Shown here piece after piece: positions 19,308-27,949 of a stretch of DNA of 29,364 nucleotides (positions within the stretch are counted from its first letter, which is position 1; the number at the start of each line of letters is the position of its first letter). The translations under genes were made by a program, and so were the position numbers. The stretch spans positions 1 to 29,364 of the IMG/VR virus record IMGVR_UViG_3300049211_000012; one strand, 5' to 3'. The notes under the pieces were generated by a model. That model had not been told where the DNA came from. It searched no databases and saw only the letters and a list, made by a program, of their open reading frames with translations. This stretch comes from a virus (lineage: Duplodnaviria > Caudoviricetes).

Positions 19308-20486
19308 TCAGCCCATCAGGGTGGCGATGTGCTCGTCCTTGATCGCCTTGGCGCCCCAGGCGAGGCGCACGTGGTAGACCAGCTGCATGAACTGGCGATA
19401 CACGGCAATCTCGAAGGCGATGCCCGACACGGGGTCGACCACGGTCATGACGTCGTCGGCCATGTCCATCGCCTTGCCGTCGGGGCCGATCGGCATCTGC
19501 GGCACGCGGGTGATCAACTGCACGGCCGACTTCGAGAAGGCCATGTTCGGCGTGTAGCTGTTGCCGATGGTCATCTCGACGCCGAGGGCGAGCGACGCCT
19601 TCAGGCCGGGGTTGTTCAACACGATGTCGCCGGAGGTCGCCACCAAGCCGGTGCCGACGCCGTAGATGTTCGTGTCGCCCGCGAAGGTCACGAGATCGCC
19701 GGCCTTGATGCCGGTGGTGTTCACCGTGCCGCCGTCGAGGGTGATGGTCGTCGCGCCCGCGGAATAGCCGGCAGTCAGGTTACAGTCGTAGCCGGTGCCG
19801 CCGCCCTTGGTGTGCACGCCAGCCGCGCCGGAGGCGTGGATGTCGAATCCTTCCAGGCGACCGATGATGCCCTCGCGCAGCATCTGGTCGGTGCCGGCTT
19901 CGTTGACCTTGAACAGGCCCGACTGCTTGCCGCGCAGGTTCTGCATCGTCGCGTTTGCGGCCACGAACTGCAGGTCAGACTGCGGAGCGCCGTTGTCGTC
20001 GAGGATGCGGCGAACCGCAGCCAGGTCGGACAGGTCGGCGGCGGTGGCGAACGGCGCGGTGCCGGCGGTGCCGAAGGCGCGGGAGGCGTTCGTATAGGTG
20101 GTGGTGAACAAGTCGACCTCGATGAGCCGGACCAGCTCCCGGAACGCCTGCACGAACTGGCCGCGCAGAATGCCGGCGTAGGAGCCTGCGTTCAGCAGGC
20201 CGCGCTGCTCTTCGCCGTTCCAGCGGATCGGAATGTGCTTCGACTTGTCGATGGTCATCGACACGTTGCCGATCGTTTGGTCGCCGGTGTTCGGCGCCGA
20301 GACGGCCGGGGTGTTGTCTGCCGCGGTCGCGGTGGGCGTGATCGGCACCAGGATCGACTGGTTCAGGGCCGCGCGTTCAGCCGAGGAGTTGCGGGTGACG
20401 GCGGGGATGAAGCCGACGAGCTCGCGGGACACGACGTCCAGCGCTTCGTAGATGGTCGGAGTCAGGGACGTGATCGTGTTTGCCAC
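19308..20486 (-). CDS. Major capsid protein, P22 coat-protein-like (HK97 fold)
   Basis: GTG start; ANT...L.P..Y.ALDVVSRELVGFIPAV; ends AWG.KAIK.EH.A.L.G; follows scaffold. Confidence 0.93.
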   Translation of the reverse strand: MANTITSLTPTIYEALDVVSRELVGFIPAVTRNSSAERAALNQSILVPITPTATAADNTPAVSAPNTGDQTIGNVSMTIDKSKHIPIRWNGEEQRGLLNAGSYAGILRGQFVQAFRELVRLIEVDLFTTTYTNASRAFGTAGTAPFATAADLSDLAAVRRILDDNGAPQSDLQFVAANATMQNLRGKQSGLFKVNEAGTDQMLREGIIGRLEGFDIHASGAAGVHTKGGGTGYDCNLTAGYSAGATTITLDGGTVNTTGIKAGDLVTFAGDTNIYGVGTGLVATSGDIVLNNPGLKASLALGVEMTIGNSYTPNMAFSKSAVQLITRVPQMPIGPDGKAMDMADDVMTVVDPVSGIAFEIAVYRQFMQLVYHVRLAWGAKAIKDEHIATLMG

Positions 20487-20494
20487 GGTGATGG

Positions 20495-20590
20495 CCTTTC
20501 ATGGATGGTGCAGGGAGGGGGAGCGGATGACCCGCAGGGGTTGGGGACTTGGGTCATCCGACCCGGGCGCCTCCGCCCATCCAGGCGTCG
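20495..20590 (-). promoter_or_regulatory. Capsid leader with two GGAU hairpins and complementary anti-sequences
   Basis: GCCT-GGAT-GGGC (20586-75) and GGGTC-GGAT-GACCC (20564-51); complements GGGTCATCCG (20533-24) and CCATCCA (20508-02). Confidence 0.55.
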
Positions 20591-20611
20591 GCCGAAGGTG
20601 TGCGGGCCTCT

Positions 20612-21412
20612 TCAGCCGTCGATGACGGCGAAGCCCTCTTTCATCTTGGCGGCGGCTCCGGCGGGGTCGCTGATCGCCAGCTTGTCGAACTCGGCGCGCG
20701 ATATGGTCTTGTTGCCCGATCCGCTGCCGCTGCTGCCTTGGGCGCCGGAACCTGACGCGCCGGAGCTCTTGAGGATGTGATCCTTGCTCGGATCGGCGCC
20801 GATCAGCACCTCCATCGACTCGTCGAAGTCGGCTGGCTGGCCTGGATTCGAGCGGCTGAATATCTTCGTGCCGTTGGCGTCGTAGGCGACAAGCTTGCCG
20901 TCTTCGCGCTTGTAATGTTTGCCGTAATAGGCCTCGGCGATTTTCGGCGTGAGGATGGTCTTCTCGGCGATCAACGGTGAGCGTGCGAAGTTGCCGCCGA
21001 TCACTTCGCGGTCTAAATCGGAAGCCAAGCCGTCGCGTTCGCCGGTGAGGACCTTGATCTCACCATCCTTGACCTTGATGATGTTCTGGTACTTGGCCTC
21101 GACCGCCGTTTCGACGCCTTTCTTGATCTCGTCGACCTTGCCGGCCGTGAGCAGTTCGCCCTGGCCAAGGCTGGAAACCGTCTCCAGCGCCTTGCGGGCC
21201 GCCTCGGGATCCTCGATGCCCTCGAAGGCCTTGAGCGCCGTCTCGGCCTTCTCCTTGGCTTCGCGGTGGGCTTTCGCCTCGCCGTTCAGCCGAGTGATGG
21301 TGCCGACGGTGGCGACTGCGTCGAACGGCGCTTCCTTGCCGTCCTCGTGGACGTAGACGGGCTTGTTGTCCTGCACGACCACATGGCCGGCGTCGTCGAG
21401 TTTGAGCTTCAT
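20612..21412 (-). CDS. Capsid scaffolding protein
   Basis: Start placed at ATG 21412 (MKLKLD..G.VVV.D.KPVYV..DGKE..FD); coiled coil, GSG linker, C-terminal helix. Confidence 0.85.
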   Translation of the reverse strand: MKLKLDDAGHVVVQDNKPVYVHEDGKEAPFDAVATVGTITRLNGEAKAHREAKEKAETALKAFEGIEDPEAARKALETVSSLGQGELLTAGKVDEIKKGVETAVEAKYQNIIKVKDGEIKVLTGERDGLASDLDREVIGGNFARSPLIAEKTILTPKIAEAYYGKHYKREDGKLVAYDANGTKIFSRSNPGQPADFDESMEVLIGADPSKDHILKSSGASGSGAQGSSGSGSGNKTISRAEFDKLAISDPAGAAAKMKEGFAVIDG

Positions 21413-21425
21413 GGTGGGGCTTTCT

Positions 21426-21491
21426 CCGGCATCCGCCGGCTGCAGGTGGAGCATCCGCTCCGAGGCGCTGCGCCCTATCCTGGGTCGCAGC
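21426..21491 (-). promoter_or_regulatory. Three GGAU-loop hairpins in the scaffold leader
   Basis: GCTGCGACCC-AGGATA-GGGCGCAGC, GGAGC-GGAT-GCTCC, CCGGC-GGAT-GCCGG; the last overlaps the GGAG RBS. Confidence 0.6.
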
Positions 21492-21504
21492 AGAAGGTGT
21501 TCCG

Positions 21505-21639
21505 GGACTTCCTGCGCTTCACCGGCTTTCGATGACGCCCTTGCTGGGGGCGCGGCCTCGGCCCGGTGGGGAGACGATCAGTGCAGGCATTGACGGTGGC
21601 GCCCGGAAGTCCGCCGTGAGGAGAAGCCGAGGCCTCACG
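21505..21639 (-). ncRNA. Candidate structured RNA (multibranch with possible pseudoknot)
   Basis: Four compatible helices plus a loop-distal 7-bp pairing found by eye; no family recognised. Confidence 0.3.
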
Positions 21640-21647
21640 AATAGGGT

Positions 21648-22199
21648 TTAGGAAGCGGCGCTCAGCCATTCCGGCGTCGGCGCGCCTAGCAGTTCCATCG
21701 ACCACCCGCTCATCGAGCGAGCCCGGTCCTTGAGGTAAGGCAGCGCCTCCAGCCAGCCGGCCCGGTGCGTCGGCGCGTGTGGGAAGCCGTGGCTGCTGTG
21801 GAAGTGCGGCAGGTCCAGCATCGGCACACCGCAGAAGACGATGCGCTCGAAGCCCAGGTCGAAGAGCGCGACCTTGCCGGCGAACAGGCCGGAGGAGCCG
21901 TTGTTGACCTGCCCCGGCAGGCGGAAGTCGGTGAACTGGACATCCTCGCGCCGGGTGGCGTGCGGCAGCCCCTCGTGGCCGTACATGGCCTTGTGGGGCG
22001 GCAGGCCGCGGGCCTCGCGCAGGGCGGACCAGACGCCGAACTCGTCACCGTGCAGCGTGGCCCAGCCGTCCAGCACGCCCGGGAACACAATGCCTATGTG
22101 ATTGCACGCGACAATCCCGTCCGGCTCAAACAGGTCAGTCGCCGCCTCGATGTCCGCCCACACGCATAAGGCGCCGCCGAGCACAAGGGCCGTGCGCAC
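21648..22199 (-). CDS. Sialyltransferase/Maf/MptE-like fold protein, putative glycosyltransferase
   Basis: ALVLGG, IVACN, W.TLH, SSGLFA..VAL..LGF.RIVFCGV pattern; abuts the portal stop. Confidence 0.55.
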   Translation of the reverse strand: MRTALVLGGALCVWADIEAATDLFEPDGIVACNHIGIVFPGVLDGWATLHGDEFGVWSALREARGLPPHKAMYGHEGLPHATRREDVQFTDFRLPGQVNNGSSGLFAGKVALFDLGFERIVFCGVPMLDLPHFHSSHGFPHAPTHRAGWLEALPYLKDRARSMSGWSMELLGAPTPEWLSAAS

Positions 22200-23694: not shown

Positions 23695-25329
23695 TCAGTA
23701 GAAGGCGGATTCGGCGACGGGGGCCTGGCGCTGCTCGGCGAACGTCAGCATCAGCGCGTCGGCATGGTCGGGGCTGGCGATGCCGCGGCGGCGCAGCGCG
23801 TCCTTCTTCTCGATCACGATCTTGCCCCGCTCGTTCTTCTCCCACTTGACCAGGGAGAGCTGAAGGTTGAGCGCGTCGCTCTGCTGATCGCCGGATGGGA
23901 GGGCGAGCAGGTCGGTGACCGGGTGCTCGATCCCGCCGTCCTTGCCCTCAAGGAACAGGACGTGTTCGTGGGTGCGCTGGAGCGCGGTGCGGCAGAGCCA
24001 CCAGATTTCGGCCTTGAGGTTGCCGAACATCTCCTCGGACGTGCGCTCGTCAGGCCAGCGCCGATTGCTCGGCGGCGTGCCGGTGTTGACCGGATAGATG
24101 GCGAGGCCCGCGACCTCGTTGTGCATCATCGTCGAGGCGACGCCGGCGCCGACGCCGGGCGCATCGAAGTTCACGGACGAGACGCCGGCCGCCTTGGCGA
24201 GCTCCAGGCCCCAGTGGGCGGTCCCGGTGGTGTCGGGCTCGCCGCGCGCCTTCGGCGGCAGGACCACGGGGCCCTTGCGCACGATGGCGACGGACTTGGC
24301 CTTGCCGGCCCCGACGTCGAGGCCAAGGGCGCCGTTGTTCGAGGGGCGCAGCCGAGGTTCAAGGTCCGCCAGCCGCTTGGCGCTCTCGACCCACAGGGCC
24401 GGGATGCAGATGCCCTCGACCGAGGCCGAATAGTCGATGTCGTATTCGCTGGCCCAGGTCGTCGGCTCGGAGAAGCTGGCCTGCTTGGTCTGCGCCCACT
24501 CGTCGGTCTTGCGCGGGTCGTCGCGCCAGTGCAGGCGGAACACCTGCCGCGGCTTCAGGATCGAATGGCGCTTGCGGGCGAACAGGTTGCCCATGCCGTT
24601 GACCGAGGAGACCCAGATCACGCAGTCGGTGTTGCCGGAGAGCGCGGCCTCGGTGGTCTCGGCGTTCGGCACGAAGGCCGCCTCGTCCAGCACATAGACG
24701 GTGGAGCGGCCGCCGCGGCCCATGTCCTCGCCGCCTTCGCCCGAGATGGTGGCGCCGGTCGCGGGGTTGCTGAGCCGCATGTAGTTGTCGTGCGTCGTCC
24801 AGCTGAACCCGACGGGCATCAACTCCGGCGGTTGCCGCCGCAGGATGATCCGCAGCTTGGCGAAGATGCTGTCGGGGTTGTCCTTCTTGTCGACGTAATC
24901 GACCTTGCGGGAGCCGAACGTGCCCTTGAAGCCGTCGAGGAACATCCACGCCCAGGCGCAGACGCCGGCGCACAGGTAGGTGGCCCCGACGTCGCGGGAC
25001 TTTTCGAGCAGGCCCTCTTCCTGGGCGATGATCTGACCGTAGAGCCAGCGCACCGCCTCGCGTTGACGAGGCCACAGGTTGAACTGGATGAAGGCGCCGC
25101 CGGGCTTGCCGATCAGGCGCGGGTCGTAGGTCCAGGCGTAGCGGTCGAACCAATGCAGCAGGCCGTCGAGACCGTTGGCGCAGCGGGCGCGCTCCTGATC
25201 CCAGCCGCCGGCTTCCGCCTCAACCCTGCGCTTCGTCAGCTCCGCTTGGATCTGCGATCGCAGCGCCTGCGCCTGTTCCCGGCTCAGCGACAACGCCGAG
25301 GACGTGTTCAAGGCGGCGGAGATCGTCAT
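23695..25329 (-). CDS. terL: Terminase large subunit (intact)
   Basis: F.LWPRQ, Walker A-like EKSRDVGAT, GRGGR, Walker B YVLDEAAF, nuclease GLDVG and SPDHADAL. Confidence 0.95.
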   Translation of the reverse strand: MTISAALNTSSALSLSREQAQALRSQIQAELTKRRVEAEAGGWDQERARCANGLDGLLHWFDRYAWTYDPRLIGKPGGAFIQFNLWPRQREAVRWLYGQIIAQEEGLLEKSRDVGATYLCAGVCAWAWMFLDGFKGTFGSRKVDYVDKKDNPDSIFAKLRIILRRQPPELMPVGFSWTTHDNYMRLSNPATGATISGEGGEDMGRGGRSTVYVLDEAAFVPNAETTEAALSGNTDCVIWVSSVNGMGNLFARKRHSILKPRQVFRLHWRDDPRKTDEWAQTKQASFSEPTTWASEYDIDYSASVEGICIPALWVESAKRLADLEPRLRPSNNGALGLDVGAGKAKSVAIVRKGPVVLPPKARGEPDTTGTAHWGLELAKAAGVSSVNFDAPGVGAGVASTMMHNEVAGLAIYPVNTGTPPSNRRWPDERTSEEMFGNLKAEIWWLCRTALQRTHEHVLFLEGKDGGIEHPVTDLLALPSGDQQSDALNLQLSLVKWEKNERGKIVIEKKDALRRRGIASPDHADALMLTFAEQRQAPVAESAFY

Positions 25330-25735
25330 CGCTCACCTTGCTGAGGTCCACGGTCTGGATCGGGCCGCCGCCCGGGCCGGTGTGCTCGTGCTGTTGCTTG
25401 TCGCCATAGACCTTCGGCGCCATGCGGCCGGCCGTCCACTTGTAGGCGTCGATCGCCACGCGAGCCCGGTCGACTTCGATCTTGCCGAGCAGCACGCCGC
25501 TGGCGACGTTGGTTACTTGGTCGCCGTAGTGCTCGCCGACCGCCTCGCGCGCGAGCACGTATTGGTCCCGAACTTGCGGGTTCACCTTCACGACCGCGAG
25601 CACGTGAGCATGGTTGACGCCCCGCTCACGACAGGCGGCGCGGAGCGACTTCGGCGGGTCTCCGGTCATCGCCTCAAAGATGGCGTCGAGGTCGGCCTCG
25701 TCGGGGCGACGCATGCCCTTCGGAGATTCGCTCAC
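25220..25735 (-). CDS. terS: Terminase small subunit (Sf6-like)
   Basis: SLRAAC HTH, QY..ARE, IDAYKW.A.RMAPKVYGDK, EHTGPGGGPI. Confidence 0.9.
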   Translation of the reverse strand: MSESPKGMRRPDEADLDAIFEAMTGDPPKSLRAACRERGVNHAHVLAVVKVNPQVRDQYVLAREAVGEHYGDQVTNVASGVLLGKIEVDRARVAIDAYKWTAGRMAPKVYGDKQQHEHTGPGGGPIQTVDLSKVSDDDLRRLEHVLGVVAEPGTGAGAAIADPSGADEAQG

Positions 25736-27114: not shown

Positions 27115-27555
27115 TCAGGTCAGGAATAGATCCGCACCACTGGATGGCCGTGCGGAAACGCTTTCGGCCTCGTCGGTCCAGTTGCCGATGATCCGGGCTT
27201 TCGACTTGATGCTGTCGAGGTTGTGTCGCAGGCCGGCGAAGGCGTAGCTGATGCGCCGGTTACGGGTGCGAATGTACTTTTCGCCGACGTCGAAATAGTC
27301 GGCCAGCCAGGCCACTGACCTGATCGCCGCCTTGATCTCCTCCATCGAGGATTCGTCGAGGCTGTTCAGGTGCTCGCGGCTGGCGAGGAACACGCCCTCG
27401 ACGCCAAGCTCGGCGAGCTGATAGATGCGCAGGGCAGACCGAAGCGCGAGGCCCCTCGTCTTCCCCGATCCGCGCCCGCCCTTGAAGACCCGCGTTCCCG
27501 CCGGCTTGGCGAAGTTGCGCGTGATCTTCGGGATTTCCTCAATCGTCGCTCGCAC
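27115..27555 (-). pseudogene. terL: Truncated PBSX-family terminase large subunit (N-terminal ATPase part only)
   Basis: Walker A GGRGSGKT, RE..NSL.ES, F.GL..N.DSIKS, Walker B WTDEAE, then about 12 unrelated residues and a stop; no nuclease domain. Confidence 0.85.
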
Positions 27556-27949
27556 CGGGCGACCTGAACTCGATGACTGTGGGTTTTGGGCTCATGGAGC
27601 CATCGCCCGACCTGTGATCCTGTTTGTCGATCACGAGGCCATTCAGCTTGGCGGCGTCCATCAGCGATGCGCGGGCCACGTTCAGCATCGCCGCTTCCTT
27701 GCTGATCTCCGCTACGTCGGCGATTTTCAGCAGGCGATCGGTGATGTCTGCGACAGTGATTTCGGCTCGGACGGCAGCCCGTCCCTGGATCTCGGCGACG
27801 CGCTCACAAATGTTCACATCAGCGGCGAGGCGGGCGGCGGCGCTCCGGCTCGGTCTGTAGCCAGCCTGAACATAGGCGTCGGCTTGGCTCAGGCCCTTCG
27901 CGAGTTCCTGCGCATAGCGTTCGTGCCGCGCGTTCTTGAGCGCTGGCAT
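27539..27949 (-). CDS. terS: Terminase small subunit, different family from 25220..25735
   Basis: L.N.RHE.YAQ..A.G.SQ..AY..AGY..S...AARL...I.ERV.E; overlaps the truncated terL start. Confidence 0.85.
   Translation of the reverse strand: MPALKNARHERYAQELAKGLSQADAYVQAGYRPSRSAAARLAADVNICERVAEIQGRAAVRAEITVADITDRLLKIADVAEISKEAAMLNVARASLMDAAKLNGLVIDKQDHRSGDGSMSPKPTVIEFRSPGASDD

Follow-up and report, generated by a model that had tools for sequence, protein, structure and literature searches.

We describe here a twin GGAU-loop hairpin that recurs in the leaders of head genes of tailed phages and is, with near certainty, a real conserved RNA element. As judged from comparative sequence evidence, it very probably controls the translation of both the scaffold and the capsid genes. 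In the whole model that we propose, to which we assign a probability of about 45%, free scaffold protein would catch the hairpins in the course of transcription, repress its own translation and activate that of the coat protein. The window, that is the whole stretch of DNA analysed (29,364 nucleotides; positions 1 to 29,364 of IMG/VR record IMGVR_UViG_3300049211_000012), consists entirely of the head-tail module of a tailed phage, and the record holds nothing further. The module is on the minus strand, to which all features of the window given below belong.

The window and its head genes

The element sits in the 125-nt gap between the genes for the head scaffolding protein and the major capsid protein. 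The scaffold gene (20612..21412; 266 aa; phrog_784/phrog_206, DUF6651) encodes the candidate reader discussed below; a longer ORF from 21454 begins within a hairpin loop, and the ATG at 21412 was taken as the start. The capsid gene (19308..20486; 392 aa; phrog_283, PF11651 P22 coat) starts with GUG. Elsewhere in the window, a 183-aa ORF (21475-22199) has no Pfam or PHROG match, and the same interval also includes a structured-looking spacer of about 240 nt that leads from the portal gene to the scaffold leader. There are two terminase sets (27115-27949 and 23695-25735), in the order Terminase_2 small subunit, 146-aa Terminase_3 fragment, ParB-methyltransferase, Sf6-like small subunit and 544-aa large subunit, and the packaging module has possibly undergone a replacement event. 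At the distal tail end, a 535-aa ORF (1195-2802) shows weak similarity to a polysaccharide lyase, with an E of 2e-4 that falls short of the cut-off.

A conserved RNA family

Homologous loci were fetched by capsid (80), by scaffold (80) and from genomes (17), and twin GGAU hairpins recur in them upstream of both capsid and scaffold genes. The 137 instances found were reduced to 69 non-redundant ones and then to an alignment of 67, from which L005, L131 and an overlapping pair from the window were dropped and to which the capsid copy of the window was added. The stems vary with their pairing kept, the loops being nearly invariant; stem covariation reached 0.604 against 0.204 in shuffled alignments, a value attained by 0/500 shuffles (67 sequences, preselected for pairing). 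G-U pairs favour the mRNA strand and far outnumber C-A pairs, although some C-A closing pairs are present. Matches to the element number 202 on the plus strand versus 9 on the minus strand. Nearly invariant loops on variable stems are what would be expected of a protein site, and the element is likely a protein-binding translational operator.

Since the aligned set had been chosen for pairing, a non-circular test was run with a sequence pattern that fixes two pairs only. By the estimate of the search tool, about 1600 IMG/VR stretches match this pattern; 114 distinct matches were sampled, 57 of them upstream of scaffold or capsid genes. Both hairpins fold in 57/57 of the latter versus 6/57 of the matches located elsewhere, the six being mostly at contig ends. 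Among the downstream ORFs scanned, 40/41 are scaffold or capsid genes, with three capsid families represented, and the 41st is a scaffold gene with a miscalled start. The capsid family switches while the scaffold family remains as neighbour.

The model matches 28 of 30 whole phage records, with one or two copies in each and three in a single record. The third copy in that record (L631:1183-1266, minus strand; G044) precedes the gene of a major tail protein (phrog_158), and 5 bp complementary to hairpin 1 lie directly before the RBS. In the window, only the two leaders are matched: the next model match has E=0.46, no further copy is convincing, and visual inspection of the sequence before nine other genes, among them those of the tail tube and small terminase, showed no GGAU twin hairpin. 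A capsid-leader copy is present at E<=0.01 in 42/80 capsid-anchored loci (not dereplicated, and some used in training). Some scaffolds of the DUF6651 (phrog_784/206) family occur without any element, and many capsid-anchored loci that lack it have a short gap or a hairpin of terminator-like appearance. In L087-L101, L009, L018, L048-L061 and others, a terminator-like GC hairpin followed by a U run replaces the element before the capsid RBS. Some capsid ORFs carry 25-70 extra, partly hydrophobic N-terminal residues ahead of the start shared with their homologues (L004, L019, L021, L048, L184, L187, L221, L231).

Rfam 15 gave 0 matches in the window at the gathering score, and the three matches found at E<=10 in 20400-20700 are all at chance level. 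No description of the element was found in literature searches, most subscription papers being beyond their reach. A survey of 10,006 candidate RNAs includes DNAVirus_7287, a 103-nt candidate upstream of P22 coat genes in gut viruses that carries a terminator flag (PMC10690425); the twin GGAU element may be among those candidates.

Two exclusive folds in the capsid leader

Hairpin 1 of the capsid leader (20569..20592) has a 3-bp basal stem, a GA/GA internal loop and a 5-bp upper stem that carries the GGAU loop (20582-20579); its core GCCU-GGAU-GGGC occupies 20586-20575. Hairpin 2 (20551..20564; GGGUC-GGAU-GACCC) has a 5-bp stem and its GGAU loop at 20559-20556, and the model match over the hairpins spans 20548-20596. 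Each hairpin has a perfect complement downstream. For hairpin 2, CGGAUGACCC (20560-20551) is perfectly complementary to GGGUCAUCCG (20533-20524), the mostly locus-specific inner anti-sequence (20524..20533), which thereby forms a 10-bp complement of the loop and 3' strand. For hairpin 1, UGGAUGG (20583-20577) is perfectly complementary to CCAUCCA (20508-20502), the core of an outer anti-sequence (20502..20520) that pairs with the loop and 3' strand and is conserved and covarying. Between the outer helix and the Shine-Dalgarno-like GAAAGG of the capsid gene (20495..20500), which lies 8 nt before the GUG start at 20486, there is a single U (20501). The preliminary description had reported two GGAU hairpins with perfect downstream complements, nested pairings and an outer helix ending 1 nt before GAAAGG, all of which proved correct base for base; of the extent of the element, it had recognized the two hairpins and overlooked that hairpin 1 extends further at its base (20592-20569).

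That the two folds are mutually exclusive, as also claimed there, agrees with predicted folding: the closed nested fold is the minimum free energy structure of the leader (-61.8 kcal/mol) and is incompatible with both hairpins, which when locked yield -44.8 kcal/mol. The closed fold is therefore favoured by 17 kcal/mol in the window, the family median being 8.4. The folding z-score of this leader is -1.91, with 8/200 shuffles equally stable. In the window, the inner 10-bp complement exceeds shuffled spacers (p=0.005). The outer one, taken in the window alone, does not, on account of the C-rich spacer: probes of 11 and 14 nt gave p=0.075 and p=0.40, respectively. Family-wide, the significance of the two is reversed. 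The anti-helix stops short of the RBS core and is predicted to block the region just upstream, so that inhibition would act on the upstream ribosome footprint. The capsid GUG is predicted to be paired in both folds. When successive prefixes of the leader are folded, the hairpins appear first and the closed fold follows once the anti-sequences have been made. A terminator-like run is absent from this leader.

The closed fold across capsid leaders

Conservation of the switch was assessed in 45 non-redundant capsid leaders, drawn from 75 motif-bearing ones. The RBS-proximal 15 nt pair with hairpin 1 more strongly than shuffled sequences do (-10.4 versus -7.7 kcal/mol, p=3e-5), the proximal spacer beats the distal one in the 30 spacers that are long enough (p=0.003), and YYAUC/YCAUY is present in 23/45 leaders (shuffled mean 7.9, maximum 14). 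Hairpin 1 also prefers its own spacer, with an own-partner advantage of -1.44 kcal/mol versus -0.09+-0.22 in composition-matched shuffles (kinship ignored); hairpin 2 has no such advantage in the 45 leaders. The anti-hairpin-2 helix is significant in only 4/45 leaders, the window included, and the inner 10-bp helix was rejected as a family-wide feature. Covariation across homologous leaders, which the preliminary description had put forward as a check, is thus found between hairpin 1 and the outer anti-sequence, and the conservation it had anticipated for both anti-sequences holds for the outer one (45 leaders) and fails for the inner one (4/45).

With both hairpins locked, opening the region from -20 to +13 is predicted to be 5.0 kcal/mol cheaper (1.55 for shuffled spacers); the gain exceeds that of the leader's own shuffles in 40/45 leaders and amounts in the window to 9.9 versus -0.3 kcal/mol. 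The closed fold is probably functional as an OFF state. The inhibitory fold that had been postulated is thus supported by the gain in access when the hairpins are held, but not by burial of the RBS core, which the anti-helix leaves free. It had further been suggested that a protein binding GGAU loops would open this fold and activate capsid translation. The conserved loops and the predicted gain in access are consistent with this idea, whereas opening the fold once formed would cost 17 kcal/mol in the window, more than an ordinary binding energy. Because of this stability, the hairpins would more plausibly be captured during transcription, ahead of the closed fold, than be released by reopening it.

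Opposite geometry in the scaffold leader

The element had initially been placed in the capsid leader only; a second copy, then missed, precedes the scaffold gene (21494-21426). It comprises a twin GGAU hairpin (21445..21494; loops 21480-21477 and 21456-21453) and a third GGAU hairpin (21426..21439) that overlaps GGAG, abuts GAAAG and ends 13 nt before the ATG at 21412. At least one GGAU hairpin is present in 81 of 96 non-redundant scaffold leaders, and in 73 of these 81 the AUG lies within 20 nt of the end of the last one, an operator position inside the initiation region, as would be expected of autoregulation of the P22 type. In capsid leaders, the end of hairpin 2 is separated from the start codon by 32-78 nt. 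Given this opposite geometry, a bound protein would block the scaffold gene yet free the capsid gene.

Where genes are inserted upstream, the element remains with the capsid start (L074, L084, L221, L231). Because such insertions part the scaffold stop from the element, translational coupling to this stop was not retained as an explanation. The ORFs inserted in the scaffold-capsid gap of L074 and L084 and in the scaffold leader of L027 look HNH-endonuclease-like by eye, and the L027 insertion falls between two leader copies.

The scaffold protein as candidate reader

The constant neighbour of the element is the scaffold family, and we lean, by a narrow margin over even odds, towards the phage's own scaffold protein as the reader of the GGAU hairpins. 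In its predicted structure, a small beta module precedes a helix (32-61) with conserved N43, E45, H49 and R50; the heptad pattern of this helix suggests that the protein probably acts as a coiled-coil dimer. Whether loops are GGAA or GGAU tracks scaffold columns 41, 38 and 35, which rank at the top of 266 (p ~1e-6 to 5e-4, not corrected for the tree; loops could be scored for 94 of the 104 scaffolds), with column 15 also ranking in one test. In a set of 133 scaffolds, leaders with only GGAA loops accompany 12/32 non-R41 scaffolds versus 2/101 R41 scaffolds, the other 20/32 non-R41 scaffolds retaining GGAU loops. A scan of 120 loci for the GGAA pattern recovered two scaffolds, both without R41, and a GAA-loop scan recovered no scaffold locus in the 120 loci fetched. 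L103 and L154, which are apart on the tree, combine an altered helix with GAA loops on both gene sides. In both leaders of L103 and L154 and in the scaffold leaders of L039 and L040, loops of variant sequence (GAAY; UGAU/AGAU) coincide with changes in helix residues 43-49.

After tree correction, loop-scaffold covariation (p=2e-6 uncorrected) is not significant (median p 0.06 with 7 and 9 independent pairs), the tree-independent pairs standing at 4.7 versus 0.0 among the 7 and at 4.9 versus 0.1 among the 9. The leader lies about 150 nt from codons 35-41, and recombination could link leader and helix because of this proximity. Structural comparisons of the scaffold were uninformative: a sequence search of the structure database gave a best E=0.059, Foldseek returned nothing at E<=0.001, VIA found generic helices only (best Z 5.8 and 3.5), and the ESM Atlas gave unnamed clusters only. 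Foldseek matches to a ribosomal protein (E ~1, rmsd ~10) were too weak to be counted as evidence. RNA runs yielded short contigs of low depth only and were uninformative on expression.

Proposed mechanism and alternative explanations

Without ligand, the anti-sequence would invade the exposed loop and form a long helix, predicted to lie across the ribosome footprint. With free scaffold present, probably as a coiled-coil dimer, helix residues 35-50 would bind the loops during transcription; the toehold would be masked and the capsid initiation region would stay open. In the scaffold leader, where the last hairpin falls within the ribosome footprint, such binding would have a repressive effect. 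Coat would be made while unassembled scaffold is present, and scaffold once coat has consumed it. The pairing of the GUG in both predicted folds counts against the whole model, and a balance between scaffold and coat accounts less easily for the copy upstream of a tail-tube gene.

The same switch might have another reader, either a host CsrA/RsmA-like factor or a phage portal, coat or late regulator. We regard this as unlikely, yet as the most serious of the alternatives: GGA in hairpin loops is a CsrA signature, CsrA can act both as repressor and as activator (PMC11479628), the scaffold covariation loses significance once tree-corrected, and the early/regulatory region is absent from the window. 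Nevertheless, an A stands two bases ahead of GGA in only 5/134 loops, 7/10 motif-bearing host genomes (some incomplete) lack CsrA, CsrA and Com occur in 1/30 and 2/30 phage records versus 28 with the motif, and it is the capsid family that changes while the scaffold family stays constant. Scaffold might also tether to head-gene mRNA so as to nucleate procapsids co-translationally, the alternative fold being secondary; the placement and covariation data fit this equally, but it does not require a covarying anti-sequence at the RBS, and we consider it distinctly improbable.

Terminator-like hairpins adjoin the element in L006, L011, L027, L045 and L122, as might be expected if the hairpins set mRNA fate (nuclease protection, processing or terminator read-through). 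The leader in the window lacks a terminator-like run, however, terminators lie mostly upstream of the element and hence on the wrong side for antitermination, and the anti-sequence is fixed beside the RBS and the element keeps to the start codon where genes have been inserted, all of which makes this reading improbable. A ligand-free kinetic timer, in which the hairpins form first, permit a burst of ribosome loading and then refold shut, agrees with the order seen in prefix folding; it is slightly less probable still, as it leaves unexplained the loop-protein covariation and the nearly invariant loops of scaffold leaders, which have no RBS-proximal partner among those tested. Lastly, the modest folding z-score in the window and the C-A closing pairs would suit a DNA-level palindrome or chance, a reading made very improbable by pairing that is kept while stems vary, by the excess of G-U over C-A and by the contrasts in strand (202 versus 9 matches) and folding (57/57 versus 6/57).

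Under the preferred reading, regulation by the scaffold itself, this protein would be a sequence-specific RNA regulator that affects two neighbouring genes in opposite ways, acting through one GGAU operator and a helix-to-loop code, a proposal that we put forward tentatively. If true, it would repress its own mRNA and license translation of the coat (in some phages the tail tube), a widespread stoichiometry checkpoint of head assembly in which coat production would be matched to scaffold supply. How scaffold and coat are balanced in tailed phages is a long-standing question, of which P22 autoregulation is the classic case. With its short and defined operator, its conserved OFF fold, its naturally occurring loop variants and a candidate reader for which individual residues can be named, the element makes this balance testable.

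Comparison with known systems

Wyckoff and Casjens reportedly described in 1985 that the P22 scaffold limits its own synthesis. According to a later study, this limitation by gp8 operates via its N-terminus (10.1101/2022.12.13.520362). Self-limitation by the scaffold is shared with the model proposed here, which differs in the scaffold family (phrog_784/DUF6651), in a defined, repeated GGAU operator and in a further copy so placed that it would activate the coat gene; neither an operator in P22 nor activation of its coat gene was described in the portions of the literature examined. In phage Mu, mom translation is activated by Com, which binds a hairpin next to an inhibitory fold (PMC6483171). 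The hairpin beside an inhibitory fold and the proposed activation by a phage protein are shared, whereas in Mu the reader, Com, is a dedicated zinc finger, the start codon is buried by the mom TIS and the RNA motif is another one. Membership in the Com/mom system was rejected: PF10122 was found in 2/30 phage records and had no match among the 30 window proteins scanned.

CsrA/RsmA represses glgC and activates ymdA, one reader whose outcome depends on geometry (PMC11479628). The targets share GGA in hairpin loops with the present element, in which it is invariant in both loops of the 67 sequences (a set selected for GGAY). Membership was rejected on the A(N)GGA consensus, an A preceding GGA by two bases in 5/67 and 0/67 loops; moreover, 4-5 bp stems here close a GGAU tetraloop, and the hosts are often without CsrA, which is present in 3/10 motif-bearing host genomes (some incomplete; 15/17 genomes submitted to the scan) and 1/30 phage records. 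ANTAR targets regulate translation through two tandem stem-loops near the RBS or start codon, with A1 and G4 needed in the loops (PMC8164766). Tandem stem-loops near the RBS or start codon with a linker of 2-25 nt are found here as well, but the hexaloop rule fails, position 1 being A in 3/134 loops (mostly C/U) and position 4 always A. TwoAYGGAY (RF01731), as described in 10.64898/2026.09.22.753630, has two GGAY-loop hairpins with AYGGAY on a shared basal stem and is multicopy in chromosomes. Two hairpins with GGAY loops are shared, whereas the present element is tied to head genes and occurs once or twice in a phage, with three copies in a single record; its loops are not AYGGAY, RF01731 was unmatched, and membership was rejected. 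By analogy, the twin GGAU element thus resembles P22 autoregulation joined to an activation switch of the Com or CsrA type, while standing outside all the families tested.
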